DNA from: a virus
Reading direction: 5' to 3' (one strand)
DNA length: 64,000 bases
IMG/VR virus record: IMGVR_UViG_3300035670_010691
Span: 44,915-108,914 of that record
Part shown: positions 47,984 through 63,571 of the stretch, in pieces
Layout: every line of letters begins with the position of its first letter
Numbering within the stretch: position 1 is the stretch's first letter
Notes under the pieces: generated by a model
Told to the model about the DNA's origin: nothing
What the model saw: only the letters and a program-made list of their open reading frames with translations
Database searches by the model: none
Made by a program: the position numbers and the translations under genes

Positions 47984-49699
47984 ATGGCAGATACAACATT
48001 TTTTGGTAGGTTAAAAAAACTATTTAACTCTCAAGCAATTGTAACCGTAGACAAGGACGGGAAACGAAAAGTTTTTGATGCAAATGAAAATCAACAAACA
48101 AATTTATCTAATTTAAGAGATAGATATACTAAAATTCAGAAGTCTTTCTATGAAATGGCGGGCGGTGCTCAATCAATGGCATACCAACAAGTTCGTAGAG
48201 AAGTTTTCCGTGATTATGATGCAATGGATCAAGACCCGATTATTGCTTCTGCTCTTGATATTTACGCAGACGAGTCCACTCTTAAAAACGAATTCGGTGA
48301 TACACTCACTATTGTTTCAGATAATGAAAGAGTTCAAGAAATTCTTCAAAATCTTTTCTATGATATTCTTAACATAGAGTTTAACCTATGGCCTTGGACA
48401 CGTAATATGTGTAAGTATGGTGATTTCTTCTTAGGTCTTGAAATTGCGGAAGGTAAAGGTATAGTAAATGTTATGCCTCATTCTGTTTACAATACCGAAA
48501 GAATGGAGATGATTGACCCTTCCAATCCTCATGTGGTAAAGTTCAAAATTATGGAAGACCCAAACGGAAAACAAGAGTATGAGGATTTTGAAATCGCTCA
48601 CTTCCGTCTTCTTTCAGATACTAACTGGTTACCATACGGTAAATCTATGATTGAAAATGGTAGAAGATTGTGGAAACAACTTTCACTTATGGAAGATGCG
48701 ATGTTAATCCATAGAATTATGAGAGCACCTGAAAAGAGAGTGTTTAAAATTGATATTGGAACCATACCACCAAATGAAGTTGATAATTATATGCAAAGAA
48801 TTATCAATAAAATGAAAAAGGTTCCATTTCTTGATAAGAACACAGGTGATTACAACTTAAAATATAATATGCAAAATCTTACCGAAGATTTCTACCTACC
48901 CGTTCGTGGTGGTGATAGTGGAACTTCTATTGATAATATCGGTGGGTTAGAATACACAAGTATTGAAGATATTGATTATCTAAAAGGTAAATTATTCTCA
49001 GCTCTTAAAATTCCAAAAGCATACTTGGGATATGAAGAAAACATTAACGGTAAAGCAACACTCGCAGCAGAAGATGTTAGGTTTGCAAGAACAATTGAAA
49101 GAATTCAAAAAACACTTGTATCTGAATTAACTAAAATTGCAGTTATTCACCTTTACGCACAAGGTATACAAGATAGTGAGATGTTAAACTTTGAATTAGC
49201 ACTTGTTAATCCATCTACCATCTACGAACAAGAAAAAGTAAACCTTTGGTCTGAAAAAGTTCGTTTGGCACAGGATATAGCTGGTCTGAATATGTTATCA
49301 AAAGATTGGGTATATGATAATATCTTTAAAATACCTACAAGTGAAAAAGAAGAACAACAGATTAAAGTAATTAATGACCTAAAAGACCGTTTCCGTTATA
49401 ATTCTATTGAAAATGAAGGAAACGACCCTGCACAGGAAGACCAACAACCTACAGACATCGAAGAGGAATTGGAAACACTTAAAACTGAATTAAAAGATAA
49501 AGGTGGAAGACCGAGAGAAGGTAATACTTATAGTAAAGACAAACACCCTTATGGAAGAGATCCATTGGGTGATGACGAAAGAACAAGACCTCGTAGTAGG
49601 ACATCCGAGGAAAAAATCCGTAAATATTTAAACGGCGTTTCATCAAAAAGAACTTATTTACATGAAAATGATACTTTATTAAACAAAAATAAAGTATGA
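47984..49699 (+). CDS. portal protein (T4 gp20-like)
   Basis: LMEDAMLIHRIMRAPEKRVFKIDIG, EDFYLP, LKIPKAYL, EDVRF. Confidence 0.95.
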   Translation: MADTTFFGRLKKLFNSQAIVTVDKDGKRKVFDANENQQTNLSNLRDRYTKIQKSFYEMAGGAQSMAYQQVRREVFRDYDAMDQDPIIASALDIYADESTLKNEFGDTLTIVSDNERVQEILQNLFYDILNIEFNLWPWTRNMCKYGDFFLGLEIAEGKGIVNVMPHSVYNTERMEMIDPSNPHVVKFKIMEDPNGKQEYEDFEIAHFRLLSDTNWLPYGKSMIENGRRLWKQLSLMEDAMLIHRIMRAPEKRVFKIDIGTIPPNEVDNYMQRIINKMKKVPFLDKNTGDYNLKYNMQNLTEDFYLPVRGGDSGTSIDNIGGLEYTSIEDIDYLKGKLFSALKIPKAYLGYEENINGKATLAAEDVRFARTIERIQKTLVSELTKIAVIHLYAQGIQDSEMLNFELALVNPSTIYEQEKVNLWSEKVRLAQDIAGLNMLSKDWVYDNIFKIPTSEKEEQQIKVINDLKDRFRYNSIENEGNDPAQEDQQPTDIEEELETLKTELKDKGGRPREGNTYSKDKHPYGRDPLGDDERTRPRSRTSEEKIRKYLNGVSSKRTYLHENDTLLNKNKV

Positions 49700-49732
49700 T
49701 AATTAATTAAATTAAGGTAATCTTTAATAAAA

Positions 49733-49743
49733 TTATATTTATA
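49733..49743 (+). promoter_or_regulatory. candidate late promoter TTATATTTATA
   Basis: Recurring intergenic motif, here after the portal gene. Confidence 0.5.
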
Positions 49744-49784
49744 ATAGATATTTTTAGTATATCAAAAAGAAATTATTAGAAAGA

Positions 49785-50645
49785 ATGAAACGAATCAAAC
49801 ACAGCAAATTTAAAAATACAGGTTTTTTATTTGAACTTTTAACAAGACAAGTGACTCTTGAGATTCTTAATGGTTCAGATGAAAAGTCTAAATTTATCGT
49901 TAAAGAATTTTTTAATGGTAAAACAGAATTATCAAAAGAATTACGTTTATTTAATTTACTTTTGAATGAAAAACAGGTAAATGAAAATAAATCAGAAAAA
50001 TTTATTGACTTGATAATTCAAGCACACTCTCACATTAACATTGAAAAACTAAATGAAGAAAAGTATAATTTAGTTAAGAAAATTAAAGAAAACTTTAATG
50101 TTGAGAACTTTTTTGCTTCTCCTATAACAAATTATAAAGTTTTAGCATCTATACACAAATTATTTGAAGCAAAAAAATTAGATGTTAAAAATGTTAAGGA
50201 TGTTTTTGATTCTCGTCAAACTTTGGTAGAACACATTTCCAAAGAAAAAGTTAATAAACAAAAAAATACAGATAAATTAGTTGAAACTTACAAAAAACAA
50301 GAAGAAGATGTAAGATTATTAACTTATAAAATTCTTGTTGAAACTTTTAACAAAAAGTATTCAAAGTTAAATGAAAATCAAAAAGGACTTTTAAAGAATT
50401 ATATTAATAATGTTAATAATTCATCAAAGTTTAAAGATTATTACAAAAAACAATTAAAAGAAGTTATAGTAATAATGACCGAATTATTTAACCAAATGAA
50501 TGATAAAGTCACCAAAATTAAATTAAAAGAAACCATCAACGTATTAAAAAACCAAAAAATATTGAGGGAGGTGAGTGATAATCAAGTATCAGCGTTGATG
50601 ATGGCTTTTGAGTTAGTAAAAGAGATAAAAAATGTTAGAAAGTGA
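49785..50645 (+). CDS. hypothetical head-module protein
   Basis: Helical ORF directly after the portal gene, with an upstream TATTTATA. Confidence 0.6.
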   Translation: MKRIKHSKFKNTGFLFELLTRQVTLEILNGSDEKSKFIVKEFFNGKTELSKELRLFNLLLNEKQVNENKSEKFIDLIIQAHSHINIEKLNEEKYNLVKKIKENFNVENFFASPITNYKVLASIHKLFEAKKLDVKNVKDVFDSRQTLVEHISKEKVNKQKNTDKLVETYKKQEEDVRLLTYKILVETFNKKYSKLNENQKGLLKNYINNVNNSSKFKDYYKKQLKEVIVIMTELFNQMNDKVTKIKLKETINVLKNQKILREVSDNQVSALMMAFELVKEIKNVRK

Positions 50646-50823
50646 ATTAAAGGAGTATATACGAGAACTTGTCAGAGAGATTCAGATGGAGTTAGACGAA
50701 ACTACTACTACTGCTTCTGTTGACGGGTATCAAACTCCCTTCGCTTTTTCAGGTGGTAGAACCAAAGATAAAAAAAAGAAAAAGGATATAATAGACGCTT
50801 CAGGTTATGAAGAAGTTAAATAG
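50632..50823 (+). CDS. small putative head internal protein
   Basis: Amphipathic leader ending LDE, then TTTASVDGYQTPFAF. Confidence 0.5.
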   Translation: MLESELKEYIRELVREIQMELDETTTTASVDGYQTPFAFSGGRTKDKKKKKDIIDASGYEEVK

Positions 50824-50832
50824 GGACTAATT

Positions 50833-51633
50833 ATGAAAATTTCAAAAAACAGATTAAGAGAGATTGTTAAAGAAGTTATTAAAGAAGAGTCAGAATACCA
50901 AGAGTTCTTCAAAAGAGCATTAGAAAAAACAGGTAAATCAATACCACAAATGTCTGATGAAGAGAAAAAGGCTTTCTTTGATAAAATTGAAGCTGCATGG
51001 AAAGGTAAAGGTGAGAAAAATGAAGGTAACGCATTTGGTGCTGCTGTTTCTCAAGCAAAAGAAGAAGGTGATGACTCGTTTGAGGTTGGTGGAAAAACAT
51101 TCAAAGTAAAAGAAGCAACAATGGGTGAATCTGAACTTCCTAATGTTGCTATCCCAAGTAGTGTAAAAACAAAGTTAAATTTGGCTATTGATAAAATTAA
51201 AGATAGTAAATTAACTTACCCACAAAAATTACAAGTGGTTGGTAAAATTATTGATAGTTTAGGTGTTGATAAACAAGAATTGACTAAAATGTCAAGTAGA
51301 TTAAGAGGAACTTTGGAATCCGTAGTAAACGAAGCAAAAGTAATTGTATATAATGAAAAAACTGGTGAACGATATGAGGTTTTATCTGGAAAGGGTAAGG
51401 GTGATTTGTTTATTGCTATGAAAGCTTTACAAAAAGTAGCCCCATCTCATATGAAATATTCTATCAAAGAATCCGTAGTAAAAGAAGGTGCTTCATCAGA
51501 AGAACTTCGTATGGCTAAAAACGCAATTAAAAACTTTGCAAGATATAGAAGAGTTCCAGGTGAACAAGCAATATATGACTTGATGAGAGCTCTTAAAGAT
51601 GTTGAAAGAGAATATAAACAAAAAAAGAAGTGA
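50833..51633 (+). CDS. modular putative head internal polyprotein
   Basis: Leader MKISKNRLREIVKEVIKE; two ESVV[NK]E linkers. Confidence 0.55.
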   Translation: MKISKNRLREIVKEVIKEESEYQEFFKRALEKTGKSIPQMSDEEKKAFFDKIEAAWKGKGEKNEGNAFGAAVSQAKEEGDDSFEVGGKTFKVKEATMGESELPNVAIPSSVKTKLNLAIDKIKDSKLTYPQKLQVVGKIIDSLGVDKQELTKMSSRLRGTLESVVNEAKVIVYNEKTGERYEVLSGKGKGDLFIAMKALQKVAPSHMKYSIKESVVKEGASSEELRMAKNAIKNFARYRRVPGEQAIYDLMRALKDVEREYKQKKK

Positions 51634-51806
51634 AAAAATTAGATGAAATACTTAACGAGTTGGTTTTGGAAGAGTTAGAAAAAAACCAAAACCTAAAAGA
51701 AGAAATCACGGGTGTTGATGAAGATAAAATCCGTGATTTAATTCGTTCAGAAGTTTCAGCAATATTTTTTGATTTATTTAAGAAACGTAAAATGTGGGGA
51801 GCGTAA
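51630..51806 (+). CDS. small protein, 58 aa (absent from the ORF track)
   Basis: GTG overlaps the upstream TGA and the stop abuts the protease ATG: MKKLDEILNELVLEE...FFDLFKKRKMWGA. Confidence 0.6.
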   Translation: MKKLDEILNELVLEELEKNQNLKEEITGVDEDKIRDLIRSEVSAIFFDLFKKRKMWGA

Positions 51807-52400
51807 ATGAAACAACTTTTAATAGAAACAAATCTATTTGAAGGTAAAATAAATGAAGATGCAAGTGGTAGAACACTTGTTAAAGGAATTTTACAACGAG
51901 CAGGTGCAGAAAACCAAAATGGTAGAGTGTATCCAAAAGATATTTTAATGCGTGAAGCAAAGAAATATGAAACTCTTATTAATGAAAGAAGAGCACTTGG
52001 TGAATTAGACCACCCTGACTCATCAGTCATTAACTTAAAGAATGTATCCCACAATATTAAAGAAATTCACTGGGAAGGAAATGACTTGATGGGAACCGTA
52101 GAAATCCTTCCAACTCCAAGTGGAAACATTTTAAAAGAATTACTAAAAGCAGGTATCCTTCTTGGTATATCTTCCCGTGGTATGGGTTCAGTAAAACCAA
52201 TTGGAGAAAATAAGGTAGAAGTCGGTGAAGACTTTGAACTAATTGGCTGGGACTTTGTTTCTAACCCGTCAACACACGGAGCATTTATGGTTCCAGTAAA
52301 CGAAAGTGTAAATAGAGGTCAAATGATTGGGTCTGAGCAATGTGATATTTATTGTAAAGCACAAGACTTAATGAGAGAAATTATAACTGAATTAGGATAA
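51807..52400 (+). CDS. prohead core protease (T4 gp21-like)
   Basis: NQNGRVYP, ALGELDHP, VSH, TPSG, GISSRGMGS, DFVSNPS. Confidence 0.95.
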   Translation: MKQLLIETNLFEGKINEDASGRTLVKGILQRAGAENQNGRVYPKDILMREAKKYETLINERRALGELDHPDSSVINLKNVSHNIKEIHWEGNDLMGTVEILPTPSGNILKELLKAGILLGISSRGMGSVKPIGENKVEVGEDFELIGWDFVSNPSTHGAFMVPVNESVNRGQMIGSEQCDIYCKAQDLMREIITELG

Positions 52401-52404
52401 AAAA

Positions 52405-52989
52405 ATGAGTAAATTTGATTTAGAAAAATATCTAAAAGAAAATAAAATCGGACTTGGTAAATATAAAACTACCGAAGGTGGTAAAGTTGCCAAAGGAGTT
52501 TCTGATGTCCGTAAAACGAATTACGATGTTCGTATTACCGAAGATGGTAAGTTAGACCTTTATACTCACAAATCAGTTATTGCTGAAGGTGGTAAAGTTC
52601 TTATCAGAGAAAATGAAGAAAGACCTCTTGCAACTGAAGTTAAAAGACACTTTTTAGAAATTATATCCACATACAAAGGTTTCCAAGAACAAATGCAAAG
52701 ACAAAGTGATATTGTTCAGACAGCAGAAACTTTGGGTGGTGTGGTTGAAGCAGCAAAAACTCTTACTCTTTCTGAAGCAGGTGATTGGTTTGATAAAGTC
52801 ACGGTGAAAAGAAATATGAGTGAGTTAGATAAGTTAGATAAAGCATTTGATAAAGTTGCTCAGGAAGCAAAATCATTAGACGAAAGATTACACGCACTTT
52901 ACGAAGATATGGGTAATATCCTCAATCGTTATTATGAAATCAGTGATATTGACCCCCTAACGATGAAAGAAAGATTAGGTCAAAAATGA
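52405..52989 (+). CDS. hypothetical head-module protein
   Basis: ORF with a coiled-coil C-terminus; several [LI]xE sites. Confidence 0.55.
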   Translation: MSKFDLEKYLKENKIGLGKYKTTEGGKVAKGVSDVRKTNYDVRITEDGKLDLYTHKSVIAEGGKVLIRENEERPLATEVKRHFLEIISTYKGFQEQMQRQSDIVQTAETLGGVVEAAKTLTLSEAGDWFDKVTVKRNMSELDKLDKAFDKVAQEAKSLDERLHALYEDMGNILNRYYEISDIDPLTMKERLGQK

Positions 52990-53177
52990 TAAAGTTAAAA
53001 GATATTATATCAGAAGAAGTTTTAGAGGAAAAGAATTGTCCTACTGATTCTTCAAAATGGTCGTATTGGAAAGGACAAGCAAAAAAGAAATTTGATGTAT
53101 ATCCTTCTGCTTACGCAAATGGCTGGGCTTCAAAACAATACAAAGCCGCCGGCGGTGCCTGGAAAAAATGTGATTAA
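52986..53177 (+). CDS. small putative head internal protein
   Basis: Leader MIKLKDIISEEVLEE; AKKKFDVYPSAYANG...YKAAGG. Confidence 0.6.
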   Translation: MIKLKDIISEEVLEEKNCPTDSSKWSYWKGQAKKKFDVYPSAYANGWASKQYKAAGGAWKKCD

Positions 53178-53188
53178 TATTTATAACT

Positions 53189-53455
53189 ATGAAAACAAAA
53201 TTAAAATTCTTATTAGAAGGTAATAGATACCAAGAACTTCGTAAATCCGAAGGAACTCCTAATCAAAAAATCGGAGTTGGTATTCGTAATATAAGAAAAC
53301 AACTTACAGAAATGGAAAAGTTTGTTGAGTGGTATTCCAAACTTAAAACTGAAAATGAATTAGGTAGAGATCAGTATTGGAAAAGAACCCAAAAACATTT
53401 ACACGGGGTCAGAGAAAGATTAATGTCTTTGTCAGAAAAAATAAGAAAACTTTAA
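53189..53455 (+). CDS. small hypothetical protein
   Basis: Leader MKTKLKFLLEG. Confidence 0.55.
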   Translation: MKTKLKFLLEGNRYQELRKSEGTPNQKIGVGIRNIRKQLTEMEKFVEWYSKLKTENELGRDQYWKRTQKHLHGVRERLMSLSEKIRKL

Positions 53456-53496
53456 GGTAAAAACAATTTAGATTAAATTTAAAAAGGAACAAACTA

Positions 53497-56196
53497 ATGC
53501 CAGCAGTATCACAACAACAACAAAAGATTTTCGGTTTAGCCCTTTCAGTTAAAAGGGGTGAAACTCCTCGTTCAGAAGCATCCCAAGAAGTATTAGATAT
53601 TGTTGATTCTATGACAGAAAAAGACATAGAAGATTTTGCTGGAACAGAACACAAAGGACTTCCTAAAAAAGTAGAACAAAAACTTCGTGAAAAAATTAGA
53701 GAAATTATAAAAAATAATATTAACGAAGTTAGTGAACCCCAAATCATAACACAACTCAAAGATGTTTTAAAAACCGGGTACAAATCTATTAAAGACCCAA
53801 AAACCGGTAAAAAAATGAAAGTAGATAGGTATTCAGCATCCGCAATCGTTGGTGTATATGATAAACTCAATCAATCAAATAAAGAGAAATTTGCTCAACA
53901 AGGTCTTCTAAAAATGCAATCAATTGCATTTAAATTATTGAAGAATGAATCTGTAGTAAGTGAAGGTATTTGGCCGAAATCAAAATTGAGTCCAAGATTT
54001 GAATTTCTATTAGCTCCTGAATTAAAAAAGAAATTTAAAGGCACTTTCCATGTTGATGGGTATGATTTATATCATAATAATAAAATGATTATGAGAATAG
54101 ATAGAGATAAAGATTCCGTAAATTCAATCGTAAATCATATAAGTAGGAATCGTTCAATCCAAAAAAACGAATCAGTAAACGAAGCATCCGATGATTACGA
54201 TTATGCAGGCGAATTACAAGACGCAGTTGAAAAGACATTAAAAGGAAAAAACATTAAAGGATGGAGATTAGATGTAGATTCTCGTTCCGGTACATTTGAA
54301 TATACTAAAAAAGGTATTGATTTAGTAGTATATGCAACTCCAATGTGGGATGGTAACAAGTTTGTTCCATTCAACGTACAAGATATGGAAGGTGATGATG
54401 TTGATATGATACAGAGAGTAATTGGAAACAGATTGACATTCAAACCAACATATGATGTAAAGAAAGATGTTTCTAACTATATTTCAGTAGTAACAAAAAC
54501 ATTAGCAAAAGTAGAACAAGTTTATAGTAAATTAAATATAAAAGGAAACACTCCGGGTGATGTGGGAATGAGAGCATCAATGAAAGACAATGTTGAAAGA
54601 TTGAAAAACGAATCCGTAGTAAACGAACTTAAAAAACTTCCAAACGGAAATTTCTCAATCAAAAAAGGATACAACACCTTTGCTGATTACGAAAAGAACG
54701 CGAAACCAGGCGATACTATCTTAAAGTATGGCAAAAGAGGTAATATGATTAAAACTTTTGTAAATGGTAGTGAATTAAACCAAAATGCTAAAAAGTATTT
54801 AAGTAAGGTTCATAGTATTGTAGGTGATAAAGTAAACCTATCTTTATTTGGAAAGCAAGGAATTTCAACTATACCTGATTATGAAAAGAAAGAAGTTGGT
54901 GTATTAGTATTGGAATCCATAGTAAGTGAAAGGAAACCAAGTAAAATAGTTTGGGATACTAAAAAAATCTCGGATGCAAAAAGAATCAATGTTAGAAAGT
55001 GGTATATGAAAACTTATCCTACCGATGAACTTGGTGGTGAAATAGACAAAAGAATTTCATTATGGGATGTTTACGAATACTTATCACAGGGTCGTGATGC
55101 ATATAAAATTATTGGTGTTGGTGATAGTGTTGTAAGAGAAAGAATATTTGAAAAACTATCTAAGGTCCTTGGTGTTGATTACGATACCATTTACAATATG
55201 TGGGAATCTGTAATAAACGAATTATCTTACGCAGATGGTCCTGCAGTAGGTTGGATTAAAAAGAAAAATGGTAAAAAAGAAGTTGTAAAGGTATTCAATA
55301 CATATAGAGGTGCTTTAATGTGGCAAGCAAAAACAGGATTGAAACTTCTTCACAGAGGCGAAGTTCAAACTGTTGGAGTAGCAAATCAAGAACAATGGGA
55401 AAAACACAAAGCTCAATTCCCAAATCAGTATGTAGAATCCGTAGTAAACGAAGCAGAAAAACCAAAAGTAGTAACCAAAGCAGAGTGGGATAGAACTCAC
55501 AAAGATTTTAAAGGTATGGTAGATGGTAAACCATATATGATGTGGTTAGATAAAAAAACACAAGAAACTATATATGGTCCAGTCACTATAAAAGAAGGGG
55601 TAGTAAGTGAAGGTAAATATGATGATATTTTAGATAAAATACAAAACACAATTCAAAATGCGTCATCTTTTATGAATGTAGGAAAAGAGTTGAAAAACGC
55701 AGGTATTAAATATGATTTTTCAACTTCTATGATACCGATGTATAGAATTAAAGTACCAGGAAACACGATTGCTATTGTTAATAAACGATATGCCGCTGAT
55801 GCTGAAAGAGAAGTGAAAGATATGGCAATTGGTTTATTAGAAGGAAAATTTTTACAAGAAGGACGTGCCTTTATTAACGCAGCTAAAAAAGCAAAAGAAG
55901 AAGGTAAGACAGAGTTTGAGTTTAATGGTAAAACCTATCCTGTAACACTTAAAGAGAATATGATAAACGAGATGAATGATGCTGAGTTTGTGGCAGACCA
56001 ATTAGTAAATCCTGTGGCGGATGGTAGTATGAGTAGAAGTGAGTTTATCAATTTTGTTAGTAAAGAAACAAAGTTTGATAGAAACTCACTTGGTAAAGTA
56101 TATGACGCTTATTTCAAACTTGGTGGTAGAGACAGAGTAAAATTAGATATTACAAAAAACGCACTTTTATTTTTATCAAAATTTGGAATTAAATAA
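53497..56196 (+). CDS. modular putative head internal polyprotein (N-terminal DUF3008-like module plus about 10 cassettes)
   Basis: MPAVSQQQQK..GLAL..KRGE...DIEDFAGT.HKGLP; repeated ESV(V)NE linkers. Confidence 0.65.
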   Translation: MPAVSQQQQKIFGLALSVKRGETPRSEASQEVLDIVDSMTEKDIEDFAGTEHKGLPKKVEQKLREKIREIIKNNINEVSEPQIITQLKDVLKTGYKSIKDPKTGKKMKVDRYSASAIVGVYDKLNQSNKEKFAQQGLLKMQSIAFKLLKNESVVSEGIWPKSKLSPRFEFLLAPELKKKFKGTFHVDGYDLYHNNKMIMRIDRDKDSVNSIVNHISRNRSIQKNESVNEASDDYDYAGELQDAVEKTLKGKNIKGWRLDVDSRSGTFEYTKKGIDLVVYATPMWDGNKFVPFNVQDMEGDDVDMIQRVIGNRLTFKPTYDVKKDVSNYISVVTKTLAKVEQVYSKLNIKGNTPGDVGMRASMKDNVERLKNESVVNELKKLPNGNFSIKKGYNTFADYEKNAKPGDTILKYGKRGNMIKTFVNGSELNQNAKKYLSKVHSIVGDKVNLSLFGKQGISTIPDYEKKEVGVLVLESIVSERKPSKIVWDTKKISDAKRINVRKWYMKTYPTDELGGEIDKRISLWDVYEYLSQGRDAYKIIGVGDSVVRERIFEKLSKVLGVDYDTIYNMWESVINELSYADGPAVGWIKKKNGKKEVVKVFNTYRGALMWQAKTGLKLLHRGEVQTVGVANQEQWEKHKAQFPNQYVESVVNEAEKPKVVTKAEWDRTHKDFKGMVDGKPYMMWLDKKTQETIYGPVTIKEGVVSEGKYDDILDKIQNTIQNASSFMNVGKELKNAGIKYDFSTSMIPMYRIKVPGNTIAIVNKRYAADAEREVKDMAIGLLEGKFLQEGRAFINAAKKAKEEGKTEFEFNGKTYPVTLKENMINEMNDAEFVADQLVNPVADGSMSRSEFINFVSKETKFDRNSLGKVYDAYFKLGGRDRVKLDITKNALLFLSKFGIK

Positions 56197-56197
56197 A

Positions 56198-58921
56198 ATG
56201 AATCTTTCAAAACTTTTACCTTATCTAAATCAAGAATCAAAGGATAATTTAGACATGATGAATAAAATGGGAATTAAATTAGGACAAGTTGTATCTGATC
56301 CGAGAGTAAAAGTTTTTGGTAAAGTGAATGAAGCTGAAGATGATAAATATACTCATATTGGGTATGGTAAGTACAAATTAAAAGGTAAAGAGGATGATGA
56401 GAACTCCCCAACATTTACCAAAGACGATACTGGTAAATATATTCCTACCAAATCTGATAAAGGTGGTAAAGGTCAAGAAAAACCAAAGGTAAACATCTTT
56501 GATAAACCAAAATCTGATGGAATGGATACTGTTAAATCAATTGCAGCAAAAACTGGATTGAGAGCACAGGCACTTGCAGGTTGGGCAGATGAAAATGGGG
56601 TTAATTTATCAAAAGTATCGGATGCTATTAATTCCAAGAAGTTAAAACCAATGGATTTAATGACAGCTATATCAGGAAATCCTGGAAACAAATATGCAAA
56701 AGATATTATTGCAAAATATTCGCAATCAAACGATACTAAATCAGATACAACAAAGGTTCCTTCAAGTAAATTAACAGATGTTCTTCCAAAAGCTAATCCC
56801 GAAACTTTTGAAAAACCATCAGATATAAACAAAATACCTGATAGTCAAAAATTGGAAGTTTCAATGAAGATTGATAAGTTAGCAGAATTAGCAAAACAGG
56901 CAAAAGAAAAAGGAGAAGCTGCTCCTAATTTTAACCTTTGTGAAATTACTATTCCAGGAACCAATTTATATTGTGAAGGAAATGCTGGTATTCCTCGTGA
57001 ACAAATGCCACAATTTAAAGGAACACCAACACCTGGATCACCCGCAGATAAATTACCAAGAGATAATTCTGGTGAAGTAGATACAGAACCAATGTTCCGT
57101 GCAATGTTAAAGAAAAATGGAATCAAAACGGTAGAAACAGAACTTCCATCAGATAGACTTAAAGCAACTCAAAGTGAATTGGTAGGTGCAAAAGTAGCAG
57201 GAATGACAAAGGCGTTAGAAAAAGACCCCAACCACCCAGCAATTACCGCACCAATTTATGTTAGTAGAGATGGGTATGTAGTAGACGGTCACCATCGTTG
57301 GGCGGCAATGACTTCATATGCAATGAAAAGTGGTAAACCTGCAAACATGAGAGTTATCGTTATAGACAAAGATATAAATGAGGTAATACCAATGTCAAAT
57401 AAATTTGCAGAAGATATAGGGGTTGCTGCCAAGAAAGCACAAACTCAAAAAGAAATTAAAAAGGCATTTAAAGAAATTATAGAACTAACAAGGTCTTATG
57501 TAAACGAACAAGAAGAAGGTCAGGTAAATGTCGGTGGATATGAAACACAACACTTTGATGTTTGTCCTGCTGCAACCGCACTTTACAAAGACATAGAGTC
57601 CAAAGGAGTGGATATGGACTTGGCTTCAAGAACAGCGAAACTACAAGATGTTCTTTTCTTTATTGAAAAACACGTCCAAGAACAAGGGTATAAACCAAAT
57701 CCATATTATGGTAAAGTTGCACAAATTCTTGGTGATCAAATTATGACAATGGGTGGTATGATGGAGTTAGGTTCAGAGCACTCATATATTCAAGGACATA
57801 TAGATAAAATACAATCAGCAGTTGAAAATAATTCTATAAAAGAAGCTTCAGAAAAAACAATTGTAAACCCTGAAACTGGTAAGAGAATTAAAGTTTCAAC
57901 CGCATTATCTTACGATAAAAAACATCCTGCATATAAAGCAGCATCAAAACTTTCATCAAAATCTGCACCAAAAAAATCAAGTTATGAAAGAGGTGACACG
58001 GTTAGAATTATCAGTAACCCTAAATTTGTAACTGATAAAAACTTTTGGGGTAAGGCAGGATACGTTAAAAACACCATGGGTAGGGATGTAATGGTGACAT
58101 TCCCTAATGGTAGAACAATTATAGTAGATCCAAGGGACTTACAACCAATTGCAAACGAATCCGTAAACGAAGCAGCAAAACCTTCACAAGTTCGTTCTGT
58201 TATTTCAAGAGTTAAAAAAGACTTGATGAAAAAGTGGAAACAAAAAGGTGGATACGAAAACTTTGGTGATAAAGAAGGTGATATGTTGAGAAAAAAGTTT
58301 AACTTCAATCCATATGGTTCATCAGAGGAAAGAGAAATTGCACAAATGATTCAAGGTTTTGAAGAGTGGGCAATTAATTACGATGGTAATATGAGAGAAA
58401 CCGTAAACGAAGCAAAAGCAATAAGTGGTGGTAAAATACACAAATTCATCACAGGTAAAAACCTCATATATAAGGGGAAGAAATATCCTGATATAGAATT
58501 TGAATTATTGGGTATTGATAATTCTAATCAGTTAGTAAATTTAAAAGTTTTATTCCCAAAAAATATTTTCGGACAAGAAATGAAAGTTCCATTCAAATCA
58601 ATCCGTAGAGGTGGTTTCATCAAAACAGATACTTCCAAAGTAAACGAATCATCAAACTACGAAGTTTATCATAAAAGTTATACATCAGCTATTGATACAG
58701 CATTAGAATATGCAAAGAAAAAAGGATTCACAACAGATCCCGAAGAAGTAGCTGATTTAGTTGGATTGCAATCAAGAAGACCAGGTAAAGGTAAAACTAC
58801 AAGAGTTTCTATTCCACTTTACAAAAACGGAAAACCACAAAGAGCTGGACTTCAAATAGTTGTTTATGGTATGGATGGTAATTCTTCAAGACCATATGAA
58901 TTGACAACTTACATAAGATGA
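56198..58921 (+). CDS. modular putative head internal polyprotein with ParB/Srx-like and SH3/KOW-like modules
   Basis: LKATQ...PIYVSRDGYVVDGHHRWAA; ERGDTVRII; VNE/IKE linkers; ATG at 56198. Confidence 0.65.
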   Translation: MNLSKLLPYLNQESKDNLDMMNKMGIKLGQVVSDPRVKVFGKVNEAEDDKYTHIGYGKYKLKGKEDDENSPTFTKDDTGKYIPTKSDKGGKGQEKPKVNIFDKPKSDGMDTVKSIAAKTGLRAQALAGWADENGVNLSKVSDAINSKKLKPMDLMTAISGNPGNKYAKDIIAKYSQSNDTKSDTTKVPSSKLTDVLPKANPETFEKPSDINKIPDSQKLEVSMKIDKLAELAKQAKEKGEAAPNFNLCEITIPGTNLYCEGNAGIPREQMPQFKGTPTPGSPADKLPRDNSGEVDTEPMFRAMLKKNGIKTVETELPSDRLKATQSELVGAKVAGMTKALEKDPNHPAITAPIYVSRDGYVVDGHHRWAAMTSYAMKSGKPANMRVIVIDKDINEVIPMSNKFAEDIGVAAKKAQTQKEIKKAFKEIIELTRSYVNEQEEGQVNVGGYETQHFDVCPAATALYKDIESKGVDMDLASRTAKLQDVLFFIEKHVQEQGYKPNPYYGKVAQILGDQIMTMGGMMELGSEHSYIQGHIDKIQSAVENNSIKEASEKTIVNPETGKRIKVSTALSYDKKHPAYKAASKLSSKSAPKKSSYERGDTVRIISNPKFVTDKNFWGKAGYVKNTMGRDVMVTFPNGRTIIVDPRDLQPIANESVNEAAKPSQVRSVISRVKKDLMKKWKQKGGYENFGDKEGDMLRKKFNFNPYGSSEEREIAQMIQGFEEWAINYDGNMRETVNEAKAISGGKIHKFITGKNLIYKGKKYPDIEFELLGIDNSNQLVNLKVLFPKNIFGQEMKVPFKSIRRGGFIKTDTSKVNESSNYEVYHKSYTSAIDTALEYAKKKGFTTDPEEVADLVGLQSRRPGKGKTTRVSIPLYKNGKPQRAGLQIVVYGMDGNSSRPYELTTYIR

Positions 58922-59457
58922 TAAAATTAAAATCTCTTATATCAGAAGATAAAGTATCAGGTGGTCTATCTGATAATATGTCTTTATCTGACATTGCAAA
59001 AAAACATAATGTATCAGTAGAAGAACTCAATAAAGAGTTTGAAATGGGTATGAAAGTAGAAATGGAACATACCACAGATAAAGAGATAGCTAAAGAAATA
59101 GCAAAAGACCACTTATTTGAAGACCCAAAATACTACACTAAATTAGCAACCATAGAAACCAACGAAGACCTCCGTAATTGGTTTAAATCTAAATGGGTAA
59201 ACATCGGTAAAAAAGTAGATGGTAAACACCCACCTTGTGGAACAAGTGGTGAGAAAAGTGGGTATGCTAAATGTGTTCCTGCATCAAAAGCAGCAACAAT
59301 GTCCAAAAAAGAAAAAGAAAGTGCAACACGTAGAAAACGTGCAGCACAAAATAAAGCAAACAGAGGTGGAGTTGATTCACCAGGTCAAGGAAAAAAACCT
59401 ATTAATGTTTCAACCCATCCCTATGGTAAAAAATCAGGAACAGGAAAAGGTTCATAA
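58918..59457 (+). CDS. two-module putative head protein (DUF5661-like module plus basic Cys module)
   Basis: Leader MIKLKSLISE; GMKVEMEHT...IAKDHL.EDPKYYTKL; TNE^DLRNWF...PCG...KCVP. Confidence 0.55.
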   Translation: MIKLKSLISEDKVSGGLSDNMSLSDIAKKHNVSVEELNKEFEMGMKVEMEHTTDKEIAKEIAKDHLFEDPKYYTKLATIETNEDLRNWFKSKWVNIGKKVDGKHPPCGTSGEKSGYAKCVPASKAATMSKKEKESATRRKRAAQNKANRGGVDSPGQGKKPINVSTHPYGKKSGTGKGS

Positions 59458-59478
59458 CAATTCAAAATTAACAAACAA

Positions 59479-59694
59479 ATGGCACAAAACGTAGCAGTAA
59501 TCGTAAGAAAAGGTGATTTAAATAGAGCACTTAAAATTTTTAAAAGAAAAGTCAGTGAATTAGGTATTCTTGAAGAATATAAATCAAAACAAGAATATAT
59601 CAAACCAACCACAAAAAGAAGAGAAGCAAAAAAGGCTGCAAAAAGAGCTCAACAATTAGAAGTCATTAAAAATAAACCCAAAGCAAAAATATAA
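59479..59694 (+). CDS. rpsU: ribosomal protein bS21
   Basis: V.VRKGDLNRALKIFKRK...GILEE...YIKPTTKRR matches the bS21 signature. Confidence 0.85.
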   Translation: MAQNVAVIVRKGDLNRALKIFKRKVSELGILEEYKSKQEYIKPTTKRREAKKAAKRAQQLEVIKNKPKAKI

Positions 59695-60570
59695 ATGAAA
59701 CACGCTCTTGTATTATTTGGAGAGTACAGGACTTTTGACATTGTTAGTAAATTTTGGGATATACCAGAAAATGTTGATGTTTATATATCAACTTGGGACT
59801 TTAGTGAGGAAAATAGAACTTGTTGGTTAGAATTTGATAAAAATACCAATGATTGGGAAATGAAATCAATCCCTGGTTTCAATCCTCTTGGTTTAGACTT
59901 AACAGAATTTTATAAAAACGGTCAATTTTTTGGTTCTCCAAATAAATTTATGCATTATTCTTATAAGGAAATTGTTACTCCTGAATCATTTTCTAATATA
60001 AAATACAAAAGTTTAAAAATTAATAATTCTGAAAATTTATTTTTAAATTCAAATACATCCAAAATGATTTTTCATTGGAAAACGGCTTTACAGGATATTG
60101 TTAGTAGTGATAATTGGAATTTGTATGAAAATATTTATCTTTTTAGATTAGATAATGTTTTTTTCCATTCACCAAATACAACAAACATATTTGATAAAGA
60201 ATGTGCAAATTTAGAACCAAATACTCTTTATTCTCCTTCAGATGAGGATATGTTAAATTGGACATTTTGTGGAGATACTCATTTTTATGGAAAAAAGGAA
60301 GTTATAAAAAAATGGATTGATTACCTTGATGTTGACAAACACACATTTACACATTTAGATTTAGCAATAGCAACTGGAGAGTTGGTAAAACAAAATAAAA
60401 TAAATCATAAAAGTTCATTTATTAATCAAATAACGGTAAGAAGGGGGATGGGTGAATTTTTAAATTTTTATTATAATATATGGTTGGAAAATGGAAAACC
60501 ATGGTTATTTGATATTCATCCAAAAATGTACGATTTTATTAGTGTTTGTAATATTGAAATAAAAATTTAG
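59695..60570 (+). CDS. hypothetical, putative glycosyltransferase-like (paralog of 30200)
   Basis: ALVLFGEYRTF, DVYISTW, FRLD, DTHFYG. Confidence 0.45.
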   Translation: MKHALVLFGEYRTFDIVSKFWDIPENVDVYISTWDFSEENRTCWLEFDKNTNDWEMKSIPGFNPLGLDLTEFYKNGQFFGSPNKFMHYSYKEIVTPESFSNIKYKSLKINNSENLFLNSNTSKMIFHWKTALQDIVSSDNWNLYENIYLFRLDNVFFHSPNTTNIFDKECANLEPNTLYSPSDEDMLNWTFCGDTHFYGKKEVIKKWIDYLDVDKHTFTHLDLAIATGELVKQNKINHKSSFINQITVRRGMGEFLNFYYNIWLENGKPWLFDIHPKMYDFISVCNIEIKI

Positions 60571-60788
60571 AAAATAAAATTACAAAACATACTGAAATAC
60601 AAAAATTTAACGTTTTTATTTAAAATTTTATATTTATTTCTATAATAACCTAATTCATTTAGGTTTAATCATATTATTTGGTTAGTGAATACCCTCCCAT
60701 CTAATGAGCGGTGAACGAAAAACCTATAATTCAATTTAATATTGAAATTCCTAATAATTTCACACGCAAAACCAAAAAGGTAATAATA

Positions 60789-61931
60789 ATGGCAAATTCA
60801 AAATTATTAAAAGAAGCAATTGCTGACGCAAAAGCTGTACGTGAGACTGCCATCGCTAACGCCAAAATCGCTCTTGAAGAAGCGTTTACTCCAAGACTTC
60901 AATCAATTCTTTCACAGAAGCTTCGTGCTGAAATGGAAGGTGATGAAGAGGAAGTAGAACTTGAAGAAGAATACGGTGCAGACGATGTTTCTGCAGCAGA
61001 CTCTTCTGAACTCGGAGCAGGTGAAGGTGATACAGAATCCGGTACAGACAATGCTGAACCAAAAAGTGGCGCAGTACAGTCAGCCACCGACGCTCATACA
61101 AAATTAGATCCTGAAACTGATTCAGAAACAGCAGAACCTGGCAAAGAAGATGAAAATATGCCAATCGCTGAAGGTGATGATGAAGAAGAAATGTATGAAG
61201 AAGAAGGTGAAGAAGAAGTATACGAAGAAGAAGACGAAGACGAACTCGACCTTGAATCAATCATTCGTGAATTAGAATCAGAACTTGAAGATGATGATGA
61301 CGATGATGAAGAAGAAATGGAAGAAGACGTTGATGATGTTGATGTTGTAAACAAAGCAGGTACAGACGCACTTGCATACAACGAAGAAGAGGAAGAAGAA
61401 GTTCATACAGAGGAAGAACACGAAGAAGAGTTATCTGAAGAAGATGACGAAGAAGAAATCGACCTCGAAGAAATTCTTCGCGAAATGGGATACGGTGAGG
61501 ATGAAGAAGAAGTAACAGAAGAAGAGGAAGAAGACCATTCAGCTCATGTAGCAGAAATGGAAGACGAACTCGAAGAAGCTTACAAAACTATTCGTTCACT
61601 AAAATCTACAATCAACGAAGTTAATCTTCTAAACGCTAAACTTCTATATGCAAACAAATTATTCCGTTCTTATAACTTAACAAACGAACAAAAAATGAAA
61701 GTTGTTGAGACATTAGACAGAACAGGAAATGTTCGTGAAGTAAAATTAGTTTATAGCACACTTGCTGAATCTTTCAAATACACAGGTTCAGTTTCAAGAA
61801 AACCAAAAACAAAAATAACCGAATCATACGCATCAAAAGCAGTTCGTTCAACCGCTCCGAAAAAAGAAATTATTTCAGAGAGTAGCAATGCTTTAGCAGA
61901 AAGATTCAAAAAACTTGCTAATATCAAATAA
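60789..61931 (+). CDS. prohead core/scaffolding protein (T4 gp22-like role)
   Basis: Extremely acidic middle region, coiled-coil ends, directly upstream of the capsid gene; ATG at 60789 after AAGGT. Confidence 0.8.
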   Translation: MANSKLLKEAIADAKAVRETAIANAKIALEEAFTPRLQSILSQKLRAEMEGDEEEVELEEEYGADDVSAADSSELGAGEGDTESGTDNAEPKSGAVQSATDAHTKLDPETDSETAEPGKEDENMPIAEGDDEEEMYEEEGEEEVYEEEDEDELDLESIIRELESELEDDDDDDEEEMEEDVDDVDVVNKAGTDALAYNEEEEEEVHTEEEHEEELSEEDDEEEIDLEEILREMGYGEDEEEVTEEEEEDHSAHVAEMEDELEEAYKTIRSLKSTINEVNLLNAKLLYANKLFRSYNLTNEQKMKVVETLDRTGNVREVKLVYSTLAESFKYTGSVSRKPKTKITESYASKAVRSTAPKKEIISESSNALAERFKKLANIK

Positions 61932-61935
61932 ATTT

Positions 61936-61941: not shown

Positions 61942-61951
61942 AGATAATAAA

Positions 61952-63571
61952 ATGGCAAATTTCGATTTATCAAAACTTATGGCAGGCAAGAATCCACAAG
62001 CAGTAATGCTTCAGGAAACTCGTCAACTTCGCAATAAGTGGGAAAAAACAGGTCTTTTAGAAGGACTTGCAGAGAGAGAACAATCTCAAATCTCTGTTCT
62101 TTTAGAAAACCAAGCAAAGCAATTACTTGATGAGGCAACTCAAACAGGTACATCTGCTGGTTCAGAAGAGTGGTCAGGCGTTGCCCTTCCACTTGTAAGA
62201 CGTATCTTTGGTGAAATTGCAGCGAAAGAATTCGTTTCAGTTCAACCAATGAACTTACCATCAGGTCTTATTTTCTATCTAGACTTCAAATACGGTTCAG
62301 GTCAACCAGGTAACCCATCATTCGTATCACAATCACTTTTCGGTGGTACAGGTGCAGACCTTGGTTCAACAGACTCAGCTGTAAATGGTCTTTATGGTGA
62401 AGGACGTTATGGTTATTCAGTAAACGATCAAGCAGTAACAGTAGCATCTGGTTCTTATACAGTTGCAACTGCTTCTTGGGCAGAAGTTGGTTACGATGCA
62501 TCACTTTCCGCATCCGTAGCTGCTAACCAATTAGCAAAAATCACAGTTGCTGGTGGTCAGTTCACACGTCCAGACCTTGAGTCAGTACGTTCATTCTACA
62601 TTTCATCATCTGCATTCGCAGCTGCTGATACATTCTATCCTGCACACTCTGACAAATCAGGTACAAGTGCAGTATTCTACGCAAAAGTAACAGACTTAAC
62701 AAGTGCAACATCTTCACTTGCTATCAATTATTCACAACAACCAGTTGCTGAAAATCGTGGTGACTTCGAAGACAGAAATCCAGTTGTAGGTGGTTCTTCA
62801 CCTGCAGGTACAGCTCTTGATATTCCTGAAATCGACCTCGAACTTCGTTCAGAAGCTATCGTAGCGAAAACAAGAAAACTCAAAGCAGTATGGACACCTG
62901 AATTAGCTCAAGACTTGAATGCATATCACTCAATCGACGCTGAAGCTGAATTAACATCAATGCTTTCTGAGTACATTTCACTTGAAATCGACCTCGAAAT
63001 CCTTGATATGTTAAAGACAAATGCTCTTACAACAGAGTATTGGTCAGTTTCTATCGGTGAAGAGTACAACTCTGCAACAAGTGCTTGGGTAGCTGCTACA
63101 AACGCACAGGCTTACACTAAAAACACATGGTTCCAAACACTTGGTGCCAAAATTAACAAAGTATCCAACAAGATTCACCAATTAACACTTCGTGGTGGTG
63201 CTAACTTCATCGTTGCATCTCCTGATGTATGTACAATTCTTGAGTCAATTCCAGGATTCGTTGTTAATGCTGACAAAGACGCAATGTCTTATGCAGCTGG
63301 TGTAACACAAATTGGTGCTATGTCAAACAGATACCAAGTTTACAAAAACCCATACATGACTTCTAACGAAATCTTGTTAGGTTTCCGTGGAAATAACTTC
63401 CTCGAAACAGGTGCTGTTTACGCTCCATACGTACCGCTTATCATGACACCGTTGGTATATGACCCAACAAACTTCACACCAAGACGCGGCGTGATGACAA
63501 GATACGCTAAGAAGATGGTTAGGCCAGAATTTTATGGTCGTATCTTCATTAAAGATTTGGCTAACGTCTAA
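61952..63571 (+). CDS. major capsid protein (T4 gp23-like)
   Basis: KWEKTGLLEG, LLENQ, VQPMNLPSGLIF, AKTRKLKAVWTPELAQDLNAYH, YAPYVPL, GVMTRY. Confidence 0.97.
   Translation: MANFDLSKLMAGKNPQAVMLQETRQLRNKWEKTGLLEGLAEREQSQISVLLENQAKQLLDEATQTGTSAGSEEWSGVALPLVRRIFGEIAAKEFVSVQPMNLPSGLIFYLDFKYGSGQPGNPSFVSQSLFGGTGADLGSTDSAVNGLYGEGRYGYSVNDQAVTVASGSYTVATASWAEVGYDASLSASVAANQLAKITVAGGQFTRPDLESVRSFYISSSAFAAADTFYPAHSDKSGTSAVFYAKVTDLTSATSSLAINYSQQPVAENRGDFEDRNPVVGGSSPAGTALDIPEIDLELRSEAIVAKTRKLKAVWTPELAQDLNAYHSIDAEAELTSMLSEYISLEIDLEILDMLKTNALTTEYWSVSIGEEYNSATSAWVAATNAQAYTKNTWFQTLGAKINKVSNKIHQLTLRGGANFIVASPDVCTILESIPGFVVNADKDAMSYAAGVTQIGAMSNRYQVYKNPYMTSNEILLGFRGNNFLETGAVYAPYVPLIMTPLVYDPTNFTPRRGVMTRYAKKMVRPEFYGRIFIKDLANV

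Follow-up and report, generated by a model that had tools for sequence, protein, structure and literature searches.

Cassette Exchange at a Repeated In-Frame Linker in Probable Head-Cargo Polyproteins of a Far-T4-Type Myovirus

Three genes in a T4-type head module encode chains of small, unrelated modules joined by a short linker of the general form ES[VI](V)[NSK]E, and this linker is the point at which related phages add, delete, permute, and exchange cassettes. The linker DNA, furthermore, shows an excess of uniformity. Probably, the three genes encode head-cargo polyproteins of an uncultured myovirus of the far-T4 type, with chains that are cut and delivered and cassettes that are exchanged at the linkers.

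Cassette genes within the head module

The window is the whole stretch of DNA that was analysed (64,000 nucleotides). Matches to PF07230, PF03420, and PF07068 lie within one gene block, which is a T4-type head module with a gp21-family protease, and the cassette genes sit among its T4-type portal, S77 protease, scaffold, and major capsid protein (MCP) genes. The features are listed below; a slash in a motif marks a candidate cleavage position.

47984..49699, + strand: portal protein, gp20 type (Pfam PF07230, E 5.5e-66; phrog_213); start of the head module
50833..51633, + strand: small three-module polyprotein, in the position of T4 gp67/gp68
51316-51333 and 51469-51486, + strand: its linkers, ESVVNE and ESVVKE
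51807..52400, + strand: prohead core serine protease, S77, T4 gp21 family (Pfam PF03420, E 3.8e-27)
52296-52304, + strand: candidate C-terminal self-cleavage site of the protease, VP-VNE/SVN, conserved in relatives
53497..56196, + strand: 899-aa cassette polyprotein, a DUF3008 leader followed by at least seven unrelated modules
53503..53673, + strand: DUF3008 domain as its N-terminal leader (Pfam PF11450, E 2.7e-13)
53947-53964, 54169-54183, 54610-54627, 54913-54930, 55204-55221, 55435-55452, and 55594-55611, + strand: its linkers
54184..54627, + strand: 148-aa cassette beginning ASDDYDY, shared with relatives L009/L107
54931..55221, + strand: 97-aa YPTDELG...GDSVVRERIF cassette, a widespread all-alpha domain
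56198..58921, + strand: 907-aa protein with a long N-terminal part (phrog_2859)
about 56945-57505, + strand: weak ParB-like DGHHR core in the 907-aa protein (ParB-like, E 8e-4)
58157-58171, + strand: linker ESVNE in the 907-aa protein
58172-58411, + strand: 80-aa cassette in the 907-aa protein, its last residues being ETVNE (58397-58411)
58918..59457, + strand: 179-aa DUF5661 protein (Pfam PF18905)
60789..61931, + strand: acidic, gp22-like scaffold with an ESIIRE/L site at 61254-61271
61952..63571, + strand: MCP, gp23 type (Pfam PF07068, E 2.6e-76); end of the head module

The 18-mer GAATCCGTAGTAAACGAA has three exact copies (51316, 54610, and 55435) and copies with 1-3 mismatches at 51469, 53947, 54913, and 55204; these seven matches with up to 3 mismatches compare with 0.07 expected, and none of 100 shuffles reached seven. 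Shorter variants of the linker occur at 54169 (ESVNE), 55594 (EGVVSE), 58157 (ESVNE), and 58397 (ETVNE). The peptide, of the ES(V)VNE type, is in frame at every site in the open reading frames 50833-51633, 53497-56196, and 56198-58921, and in the whole 108.9-kb virus record the copies with up to 2 mismatches are confined to these three genes. In ORF 53497, the spacings between linkers are 222, 441, 303, 291, 231, and 159 bp. The units enclosed by the linkers are mutually unrelated by BLASTP, the sole exception being a 29-aa mini-motif common to genes 50833 and 53497; they measure 50-170 aa and are mostly net basic. The initial annotation had reported the in-frame sites across three genes, the spacings, the unrelated units, and a protease gene inside the region, and apart from the mini-motif our searches agree with it on each of these.

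The 50833-51633 product begins with a helical leader bearing IVKE/VIKE sites, and homologues of this leader head differing cassette sets in L007, L011, and P0004. After the DUF3008 leader of the 899-aa protein come the candidate sites REKIRE, NINE, and VSE, and the 907-aa protein closes with a 169-aa C-terminal module after its 80-aa cassette. The DUF5661 protein has a 10-residue N-terminus, MIKLKSLISE/D, with a hydrophobic-x-Glu site at its end, and similar MIKL..L..E leaders are present in L048 and L080. The T4 capsid-targeting sequence has the same length of 10 residues and also a hydrophobic-x-Glu end. Judged by sequence only, the candidate leaders with such ends are MIKLKSLISE/, ...REIVKE/, and DUF3008 followed by ...KIRE/.

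The protease finds more than 550 IMG/VR contigs at E<=1e-3, so the phage group is abundant; the best 80 of these carry proteases 81-87% identical to that of the window. The nearest isolates by MCP are Flavobacterium phage immuto and Microcystis phage Mel-JY01 (52-54%), and the cultured phage immuto has the same head module minus an insert of ~7.7 kb. The DUF3008 leader is the only part that matches cultured phages, namely cyanomyoviruses, and its homologue in cyanophage S-SCSM1 is annotated as 'virion protein'.

At E<=1e-3, homologues of the YPTDELG cassette fall into 1344 representative clusters; some are stand-alone, as the initial annotation had proposed to look for, and others are embedded at many offsets. 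Its AF2 model has a mean pLDDT of 94; it matches no Pfam family, and a PDB fold search gave no match. Two copies of the YPTDE domain are present in the polyvalent protein P0027, alongside ArdcN, MPTase-PolyVal, LPD25, and LPD3. The 148-aa cassette has neither a Pfam family nor an Atlas match. Among the hallmark domains sought in the three cassette genes, MPTase, ArdC-N, methylase, helicase, and ART-type domains were not found, DUF3008 and the weak ParB-like signal being the only hits, and the cassette genes gave no Pfam or PHROG match to the T4 IPI, IPII, IPIII, and Alt families. In other phage lineages, the same domains are joined by quite different stereotyped linkers.

Exchange of cassettes among relatives

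Are the linkers the places where these arrays are rearranged? The initial annotation had named a comparison of relatives for breakpoints at the repeat, which is the decisive test for its proposal, and we compared about 110 contigs. The same modules recur across them in differing orders, numbers, and genes, and the cassettes of the window reappear in other genes and contexts. Between flanks that are 93-100% identical, the arrays form a nested series, 5-13-2, 5-10-13-2, 5-10-13-19-2, 5-10-13-30-19-2, and 5-10-13-19-94-2, in which the numerals are cassette cluster numbers; cassette 19 has an exact 15-bp direct repeat on both flanks. L010, L012, and P0003 carry their modules in a permuted order. 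Cassettes can also greatly exceed their flanks in similarity between phages: cassette 10 is 89% identical between phages with leaders only 65% identical, the corresponding figures for cassette 30 and its leaders are 95% and 75%, and the 148-aa cassette is 89% identical to the L009/L107 copy, which has different neighbours. The 80-aa cassette stands alone right after a gene 53497-type leader in L115-L124 and is found in further contexts in L079 and L092.

The ends of the similar segments mostly lie at or next to linkers. In HSPs of >=85% identity, 74% of the internal ends and 79% of the internal starts fall within 2 aa of a linker, compared with 3-9% at random. Many distinct neighbour pairs are joined at linkers, and many arrays combine a constant leader with constant C-terminal modules. 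Cassette indels and permutations with breakpoints at the repeat are thus what the relatives display.

The locus had initially been described as an integron-like in-frame array. The addition, deletion, and shuffling of cassettes at the linker are borne out, but an integron mechanism is not: the boundary is a coding, non-palindromic direct repeat of 15-18 bp instead of attC-type imperfect inverted repeats, and neither a tyrosine-recombinase integrase nor another recombinase family was found among the 19 proteins scanned at 36.6-63.6 kb of the window.

Linker peptide, linker DNA, and possible explanations

At the peptide level, the linker has Glu at P1, Val or Ile at P3, and a variable P2, and 66% of linkers have Ala, Gly, or Ser at P1'. 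The proteases of T4, phiKZ, and SPN3US all cleave after Glu, and that of SPN3US favours Val at P4 (PMC5694885, PMC10052503). VNE/S or MNE/S is present in the protease C-terminus of 53 of the 54 relatives in which the FxVP anchor was found, and the scaffold motif is kept in relatives as ESIIKE/L (ESII[KR]E); both proteins are classic substrates. The hydrophobic-x-Glu rule, the protease VNE/S, and the scaffold motif make cleavage of the linkers by the gp21-type protease plausible. It is likewise plausible that one leader serves to load the cargo, that the cargo is injected, and that it has an anti-defence role.

At the DNA level, TCC accounts for 7.6% of Ser codons and AAC for 22.7% of Asn codons window-wide, whereas six of nine linker Ser codons are TCC and nearly all linker Asn codons are AAC. 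Across 176 distinct junctions, GTA reaches 95% versus 69% in matched VN context (p 6.5e-12), AAC reaches 74% versus 45% in matched controls (p 5e-7), and the Ser codon spectrum differs from that of matched controls (p 2e-7); these p-values are optimistic because the junctions are not phylogenetically independent. The within-locus concordance of the Ser and of the Asn linker codons lay above all 2000 shuffles. In the window and in L009-L012, the linkers are marked by the rare TCC, and the linkers of many relatives use the genome-common codons TCA and GTA; this variation by lineage suggests concerted evolution, in which linker DNA is homogenised within lineages. The initial annotation had claimed a conservation of synonymous linker positions beyond the needs of the peptide. 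The TCC and AAC excess in the window and the excess over matched controls uphold this claim, but about half of the codon effect is ordinary context-dependent codon choice, and the common codons of many relatives limit it further. These results support the view that peptide selection and codon context do not fully account for the uniformity of the linker DNA.

We propose that each chain consists of an N-terminal leader followed by unrelated domains, the leader being either DUF3008 or a short amphipathic helix with hydrophobic-x-Glu at its end. The chain would be made late and drawn by its leader into the prohead core, where the gp21-type protease would cleave behind the final Glu of each linker; the released small proteins would remain with the DNA and enter the host together with it. 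Cassettes would be deleted, duplicated, inserted, or permuted by short-homology recombination, either inside one genome or between relatives that infect the same cell. Because the direct repeat lies on both sides of every cassette, such recombination can reshuffle the array while keeping the frame and the cleavage site. More tentatively, the linker may be dual-coded, its peptide being the prohead-protease site of the lineage and its DNA being kept uniform as a recombination substrate. In-frame cassette exchange might then be general, with T4-like and other tailed phages sharing a pool of small delivered proteins that are partly polyvalent-protein domains, and each lineage might rewrite the linker to its own protease (ES(V)VNE here; possibly [YFM]A.GG or [AG]SRK.A elsewhere, which are candidates by their sequence).

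Could the DNA repeat instead have no role of its own? The linkers would then be protease sites and domain boundaries, recombination would occur anywhere or in long shared flanks, selection would keep the linker-joined products, and the likeness of linker DNA would stem from descent and context codon bias. The breakpoints at linkers could indeed reflect selection alone, with only in-frame, domain-preserving recombinants surviving; the constant leaders and C-terminal modules provide long homology arms in many arrays, common codons are used at relatives' linkers, and the matched controls already contain 69% GTA and 45% AAC. We nevertheless regard this explanation as rather unlikely, given that the excess over matched controls persists at three codon positions, that non-orthologous linkers are homogenised within lineages down to the rare TCC (7.6% background versus 6/9), that a recent indel is bounded by the exact 15-bp direct repeat, and that many different neighbour pairs meet at linkers.

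The genes between portal and protease hold the T4 gp67/gp68 position, so some chains may be expendable scaffold rather than injected cargo. The pieces might even be disposable prohead-core or scaffold filler that leaves the head, like the fragments of T4 gp22, gp67, and gp68, since the genes lie in the region of gp67/gp68 and gp22, the same motif is found in the scaffold, and T4 core proteins are cut to short fragments that exit the capsid (PMC5694885). Such a fate seems improbable, since close relatives differ strongly in cassette content and exchange it horizontally, as one would not expect of an assembly scaffold; the modules, moreover, are predicted to be folded domains (one at AF2 pLDDT 94), and one recurs in an ArdC/MPTase polyvalent protein. 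T4 internal proteins are net basic, as are most of the modules, which also argues against filler. We find it very hard to believe that the products are uncleaved multidomain proteins, virion or non-virion, in which ESVNE is merely a flexible inter-domain linker. Some polyvalent proteins are delivered unprocessed (PMC5512222), but a flexible spacer would need no invariant Glu-Ser...Glu, and the linker obeys the gp21-type rule at P1 and P3 while tolerating change at P2. The motif is also conserved in the protease and the scaffold, and the different stereotyped linkers that join the same domains in other lineages fit lineage-specific processing better than a generic spacer.

If the chains of these probable head-cargo polyproteins are cut and delivered, one leader and one protease would suffice for a phage to fill its head with many small proteins as a changeable kit, and simple recombination would re-assort the kit with frame and processing intact. 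This would explain the fast diversification of internal and ejected protein repertoires and would tie T4 internal proteins to the polyvalent proteins of other mobile elements. Leader plus repeated linker would also be a sequence rule for mining metagenomes for thousands of candidate first-minute effectors, anti-defence proteins included, and the two elements would be usable for loading foreign proteins into capsids.

Comparison with known systems

We found no paper in the literature describing such linker-joined head-cargo arrays. The closest known systems are T4 internal proteins, polyvalent proteins, and PeSL shuffling. The internal proteins of T4 enter the prohead core by means of an N-terminal targeting sequence, are trimmed after Glu by the gp21 protease, and are injected together with the DNA; GmrSD restriction is inhibited by Ip1-3 (PMC5694885, PMC3012670, PMC12373910). 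The IP loci of T-even phages are shuffling hot spots between conserved elements (PMC2839356). The cassettes resemble IPI, IPII, IPIII, and Alt in being small, non-essential, and highly variable products of a T4-type phage, but they have no sequence homology to T4 IPs. In T4, every IP has a gene and a leader to itself, whereas here many cargos share one leader and one reading frame; the shuffling of the IPs is ascribed to intergenic promoter/stem-loop elements, whereas here the coding linker is the exchange repeat. PeSLs, the intergenic promoter and stem-loop units of T4-type genomes (Arbiol et al. 2010, PMC2839356; PMC4122927), are similar in that variable ORFan cassettes are bounded by short conserved repeats, at which close relatives differ by insertion, deletion, or replacement. 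Unlike the intergenic early promoter and stem-loop of PeSLs, the repeats here lie inside continuous reading frames.

Polyvalent proteins are chains of 2-15 unrelated conflict-type domains, mosaic, encoded beside virion genes, and predicted to be packaged, delivered, and sometimes processed (Iyer, Burroughs, Anand, de Souza, Aravind 2017; PMC5512222). The present chains likewise carry several unrelated domains in architectures that are mosaic among relatives, and the YPTDE domain is common to both. In polyvalent proteins, however, processing is attributed to MPTase domains within the chain itself, and a stereotyped linker or DNA repeat is not described for them (PMC5512222); the chains here have no peptidase domain, very small modules, and a prohead-protease-type motif at every junction. 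Multiple cuts after x-x-Glu in head-internal proteins are confirmed by MS for SPN3US gp245 and phiKZ gp175, ejection proteins of giant phages that gp21-like proteases process, with the rule A-X-E and Val preferred at P4 (PMC10052503, PMC5694885). Those cuts remove or fragment the propeptides of single proteins, whereas here they would release a series of unrelated modules.

Similar to Rhs and CdiA, a short conserved peptide/DNA motif divides a constant part from swappable modules. In these polymorphic toxins, a conserved boundary motif serves for processing or demarcation and is the point of recombination at which toxin tips are swapped with orphan cassettes, and the Rhs boundary motif is also a proteolytic site. 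In view of Rhs/CdiA and of the T-even IP loci with their conserved capsid-targeting leader and their shuffling elements (PMC2839356), the initial statement that no system with a dual-use repeat had been described went too far. Rhs/CdiA proteins, on the other hand, have one variable tip, autoproteolysis, and secretion, whereas the genes described here combine multi-cassette arrays with a trans-acting head protease in a virion context.

Head module and linker repeat of the window

The window occupies the final 64 kb of an IMG/VR virus record of 108.9 kb, which is estimated to be ~45% complete. Its G+C content is 29.5%, and every gene lies on the + strand. A T4-type head module spans 47984–63571 and includes the following genes:

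Within 47984–63571, + strand, portal (PF07230)
Within 47984–63571 (at 51807–52400), + strand, S77 prohead protease (PF03420)
Within 47984–63571 (at 60789–61931), + strand, acidic scaffold-like protein
Within 47984–63571, + strand, gp23-type capsid protein (PF07068)

Among cultured phages, the capsid protein is nearest to those of Flavobacterium phage immuto and Microcystis phage Mel-JY01 (52–54% identity). The head module of immuto is the same but compact; compared with it, the window has ~7.7 kb of additional genes that separate the protease from the scaffold, including both large repeat-bearing genes (53497–56196, encoding 899 aa with a DUF3008 leader, and 56198–58921, encoding 907 aa). The T4 late-promoter consensus, TATAAATA, showed no enrichment. 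Two glycosyltransferase family 25-like genes (41581–43970) lie within the structural region, between an enzyme polyprotein and the terminase.

The initial annotation had described an 18-bp repeat that recurs in frame between protein modules, and this observation was confirmed. Exact copies of the 18-mer lie at 51316, 54610 and 55435, four further copies carry 1–3 mismatches, and the total of seven matches (exact or with up to three mismatches) was reached in none of 100 shuffles; shorter forms lie at 54169, 55594, 58157 and 58397. All of the copies are in frame, reading ES[VI](V)[NSK]E, EGVVSE or ETVNE across 50833–51633, 53497–56196 and 56198–58921, and the spacings first reported between them are correct. 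Hereafter, we call this peptide and its DNA the linker. The units that it encloses, the majority of which are net basic, had been described as mutually unrelated, which holds generally but not for a mini-motif of ~29 aa (G.AF..A...AKEEG...FE..GKT..V..KE) that is common to genes 50833 (51022–51108) and 53497 (55858–55944) at 55% identity. The mini-motif is also found at the C-terminal end of the chains of two relative contigs (L010 and L012) and terminates in a V- or L-K-E site.

Cassette exchange and codon uniformity at the linkers

Is the linker the junction at which modules are exchanged? The check regarded at the outset as decisive was whether relatives differ in module content with breakpoints at the linker, and this is what we found. 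Seven viral contigs were retrieved by an exact-match scan, and the homologous chains in four of these differ from one another in the order and number of the same modules. Relatives of the protease in IMG/VR number more than 550, and among the best 80 of these (81–87% identical), about half of the loci have ORFs with at least two linkers, and such ORFs lie on both sides of the protease. A metagenome scan with the 899-aa protein yielded four loci, two of which (L106 and L107) were additional to the contig set. When 146 linker-bearing proteins were split at the linker, they gave 406 modules (cassettes), which fall into 101 clusters (their numbers follow cluster size), and the resulting architectures are plainly combinatorial. 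The gene immediately upstream of the protease forms a nested series (5-13-2, 5-10-13-2, 5-10-13-19-2, 5-10-13-30-19-2 and 5-10-13-19-94-2), with 5-24-10-2 and 5-79-30-2 as a related set. In one close series (L072, L086, L068 and L083), the shared parts are 93–100% identical in DNA. An exact 15-bp direct repeat stands on both sides of cassette 19.

Furthermore, the cassettes travel from one background to another: phages with 65% identity in their leaders share cassette 10 at 89% identity, and for cassette 30, leaders with 75% identity accompany cassettes with 95%. One common leader precedes a permuted cassette order in L010, L012 and two relative proteins (P0002 and P0003). The 148-aa cassette of the window has different neighbours in L009 and L107, where it recurs at 89% identity; in L115–L124, a leader of the 53497 type is directly followed by the 80-aa cassette that the window carries in its third gene; and the C-terminal module of the window is an internal cassette in P0004.

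For an unbiased test, breakpoints were taken as the ends of whole-protein BLAST HSPs with at least 85% identity, and their distance to the nearest linker was measured. The results show that 74% of the internal ends and 79% of the internal starts fell within two residues of a linker, compared with 3–9% at random. With all HSPs, whatever their identity, the corresponding values were 26% versus 5% within 3 aa; this version was noisy, and the high-identity test was used instead. Contig ends were found within 1 kb downstream of the protease in 26 of 80 contigs (L013–L092) versus 5 of 80 within 1 kb upstream, a pile-up that suggests a population-variable region that breaks assembly. There is good support for reading these genes as cassette arrays that exchange modules at the linker.

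The initial annotation had also claimed that the linker codons are conserved beyond the needs of the peptide. In the window, TCC accounts for 6 of the 9 linker Ser codons and AAC for nearly all of the linker Asn codons, against backgrounds of 7.6% of Ser and 22.7% of Asn codons, respectively. In the full set of 264 linkers, which represent 176 distinct junctions, the Val at P3 is GTA in 95% and Asn is AAC in 74%, and AGT and TCT are hardly ever used for Ser. As a first control, we took the VNE tripeptides of other genes, which were already codon-biased, and we therefore used a context-matched control from ORFs without linkers, in which Val before Asn is GTA in 69% and Asn in [VI]NE is AAC in 45%. 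An excess over this control remains (p = 6.5e-12 for Val, 5e-7 for Asn and 2e-7 for Ser, for junctions that are not phylogenetically independent), but a sizeable part of the bias is context bias, and a bias wholly independent of the peptide was rejected on these controls. Many relatives have common codons at their linkers, which leaves a real effect, though a smaller one than first supposed.

The third position of the linker Ser is lineage-specific, being TCC in the window and L009–L012 and TCA in most other loci. Within a locus, the agreement between non-orthologous linkers exceeds that in all 2000 shuffles, both for Ser and for Asn, and the linker after one and the same cassette adopts the local flavour of each genome. 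These patterns, in junctions that are not phylogenetically independent, point to concerted evolution of the linkers through recombination between them. A DNA-level role of the linker is supported, with a moderate effect size.

The linker as a candidate protease site

The linker has Glu at P1, Val or Ile at P3, a variable P2 (N, K, S or T) and, in 66%, Ala, Gly or Ser at P1'. The gp21-type enzymes cut after Glu, and for gp245 of SPN3US the cut site is A-X-E, with a preference for Val at P4 (PMC5694885, PMC10052503). The linker pattern follows the rule of these enzymes; from this match, from similar motifs in the protease and the scaffold and from the linkers of other lineages (see below), we infer that it is a candidate gp21-type protease site. 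Near its C-terminus, the protease itself has VP-VNE/SVN (52296–52304; the slash marks the putative cut), which is kept in nearly all relatives and is likely its self-cleavage site, C-terminal self-cleavage being documented for the SPN3US and phiKZ proteases (PMC5694885). The codons of this site are GTA-AAC-GAA, as in the linkers. The scaffold has a conserved ESII[KR]E/L, and the T4 scaffold is a classic multi-cut substrate. Candidate leaders end in hydrophobic-x-Glu (e.g., MIKLKSLISE/), as does the 10-residue capsid-targeting sequence of T4. Homologues of the DUF3008 leader are found in cyanophages, and one of them is annotated as a virion protein.

Could the linker simply be a generic spacer? 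In other lineages, YPTDE and other shared cargo domains occur with different stereotyped linkers, namely [YFM]A.GG, with as many as 21 copies in one protein, and [AG]SRK.A. The former joins YPTDE and KVDDLVYNKRT...GEVKTDADG domains in chains of up to 2187 aa (P0013, P0016, P0024, P0050 and P0092), and the latter is found in P0005; a viral-contig scan with P0016 and a tblastn search of cultured phages with P0024 gave no match. Common cargo domains with lineage-specific linkers fit a processing signal that changes between lineages better than a generic spacer. Cleavage, packaging, injection and anti-defence function may reasonably be inferred.

The 1646-aa multi-enzyme chain upstream of the terminase (36639–41579) comprises cytidylyltransferase-like, HD, ROS/MucR zinc finger and ligase-like C-terminal parts. 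Its candidate sites are loose in the window (LNE, INE), and its relatives (L015:248–3010 and L035:326–3355) have a strict ...KKESVNE/ linker before a 402-aa C-terminal module. In L035, the 75-aa cassette 24, which L058 and L064 have in their portal-protease gene, is inserted at this linker. In immuto, the 842-aa gp191 upstream of the terminase (L125:1111–3636) has a 41-aa mini-module bounded by ...NESVNE/G and ...KESLNE/D, and the scaffold has a tandem 62-aa duplication bounded by VNE/G and LEE/G.

Cargo modules and comparison with known systems

Pfam searches with single modules gave no family, the DUF3008 leader being the sole exception; the 148-aa cassette had no match in the ESM Atlas, nor did the modules in PDB sequence searches. 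At E ≤ 0.001, the YPTDELG...GDSVVRERIF cassette matches 1344 representative clusters. This widespread domain lies at many offsets in proteins of up to 2744 aa and also, as the proposed search for stand-alone homologues revealed, in separate proteins of 76–130 aa; tblastn against cultured phages gave no match. Its model is a confident all-alpha fold (mean pLDDT 94), for which Foldseek and VIA-align against the PDB found nothing clear (best VIA-align Z 4.0). One YPTDE-bearing protein also has ArdcN, MPTase-PolyVal, LPD25 and LPD3, which make it a bona fide polyvalent protein (PMC5512222), and T4 Ip1–3 are injected GmrSD inhibitors (PMC12373910). On these two grounds, the second by analogy, it is plausible that the YPTDE cassette is delivered and has a conflict-related role. 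The long N-terminal part of gene 56198 has a ParB-like DGHHR core (56945–57505) with a weak signature, VVDGHHRW (phrog_2159, E 8e-4; ParBc_2, E 0.22); DdrB-like ParB domains are known head-packaged domains of polyvalent proteins (PMC5512222). This core is also found in 1250–1435-aa proteins of L109–L114, where linkers are few.

The initial likening of the arrays to integrons did not hold: the repeats that bound the cassettes are direct, coding and non-palindromic, and an integron mechanism was rejected, with no integrase among the proteins scanned and no attC-like structure. A full-text literature search found no paper on such arrays. They resemble T4 internal proteins in leader, gp21 cut, delivery and hypervariable loci, the cut and the delivery being putative in the window; polyvalent proteins in being mosaic multi-domain chains, here presumably delivered; and PeSL shuffling in exchange at short conserved repeats (PMC2839356). 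Unlike these three systems, however, the window arrays place many cargos behind one leader in one frame and have the same protease-type motif at every junction, and the coding motif itself is the repeat where exchange happens.
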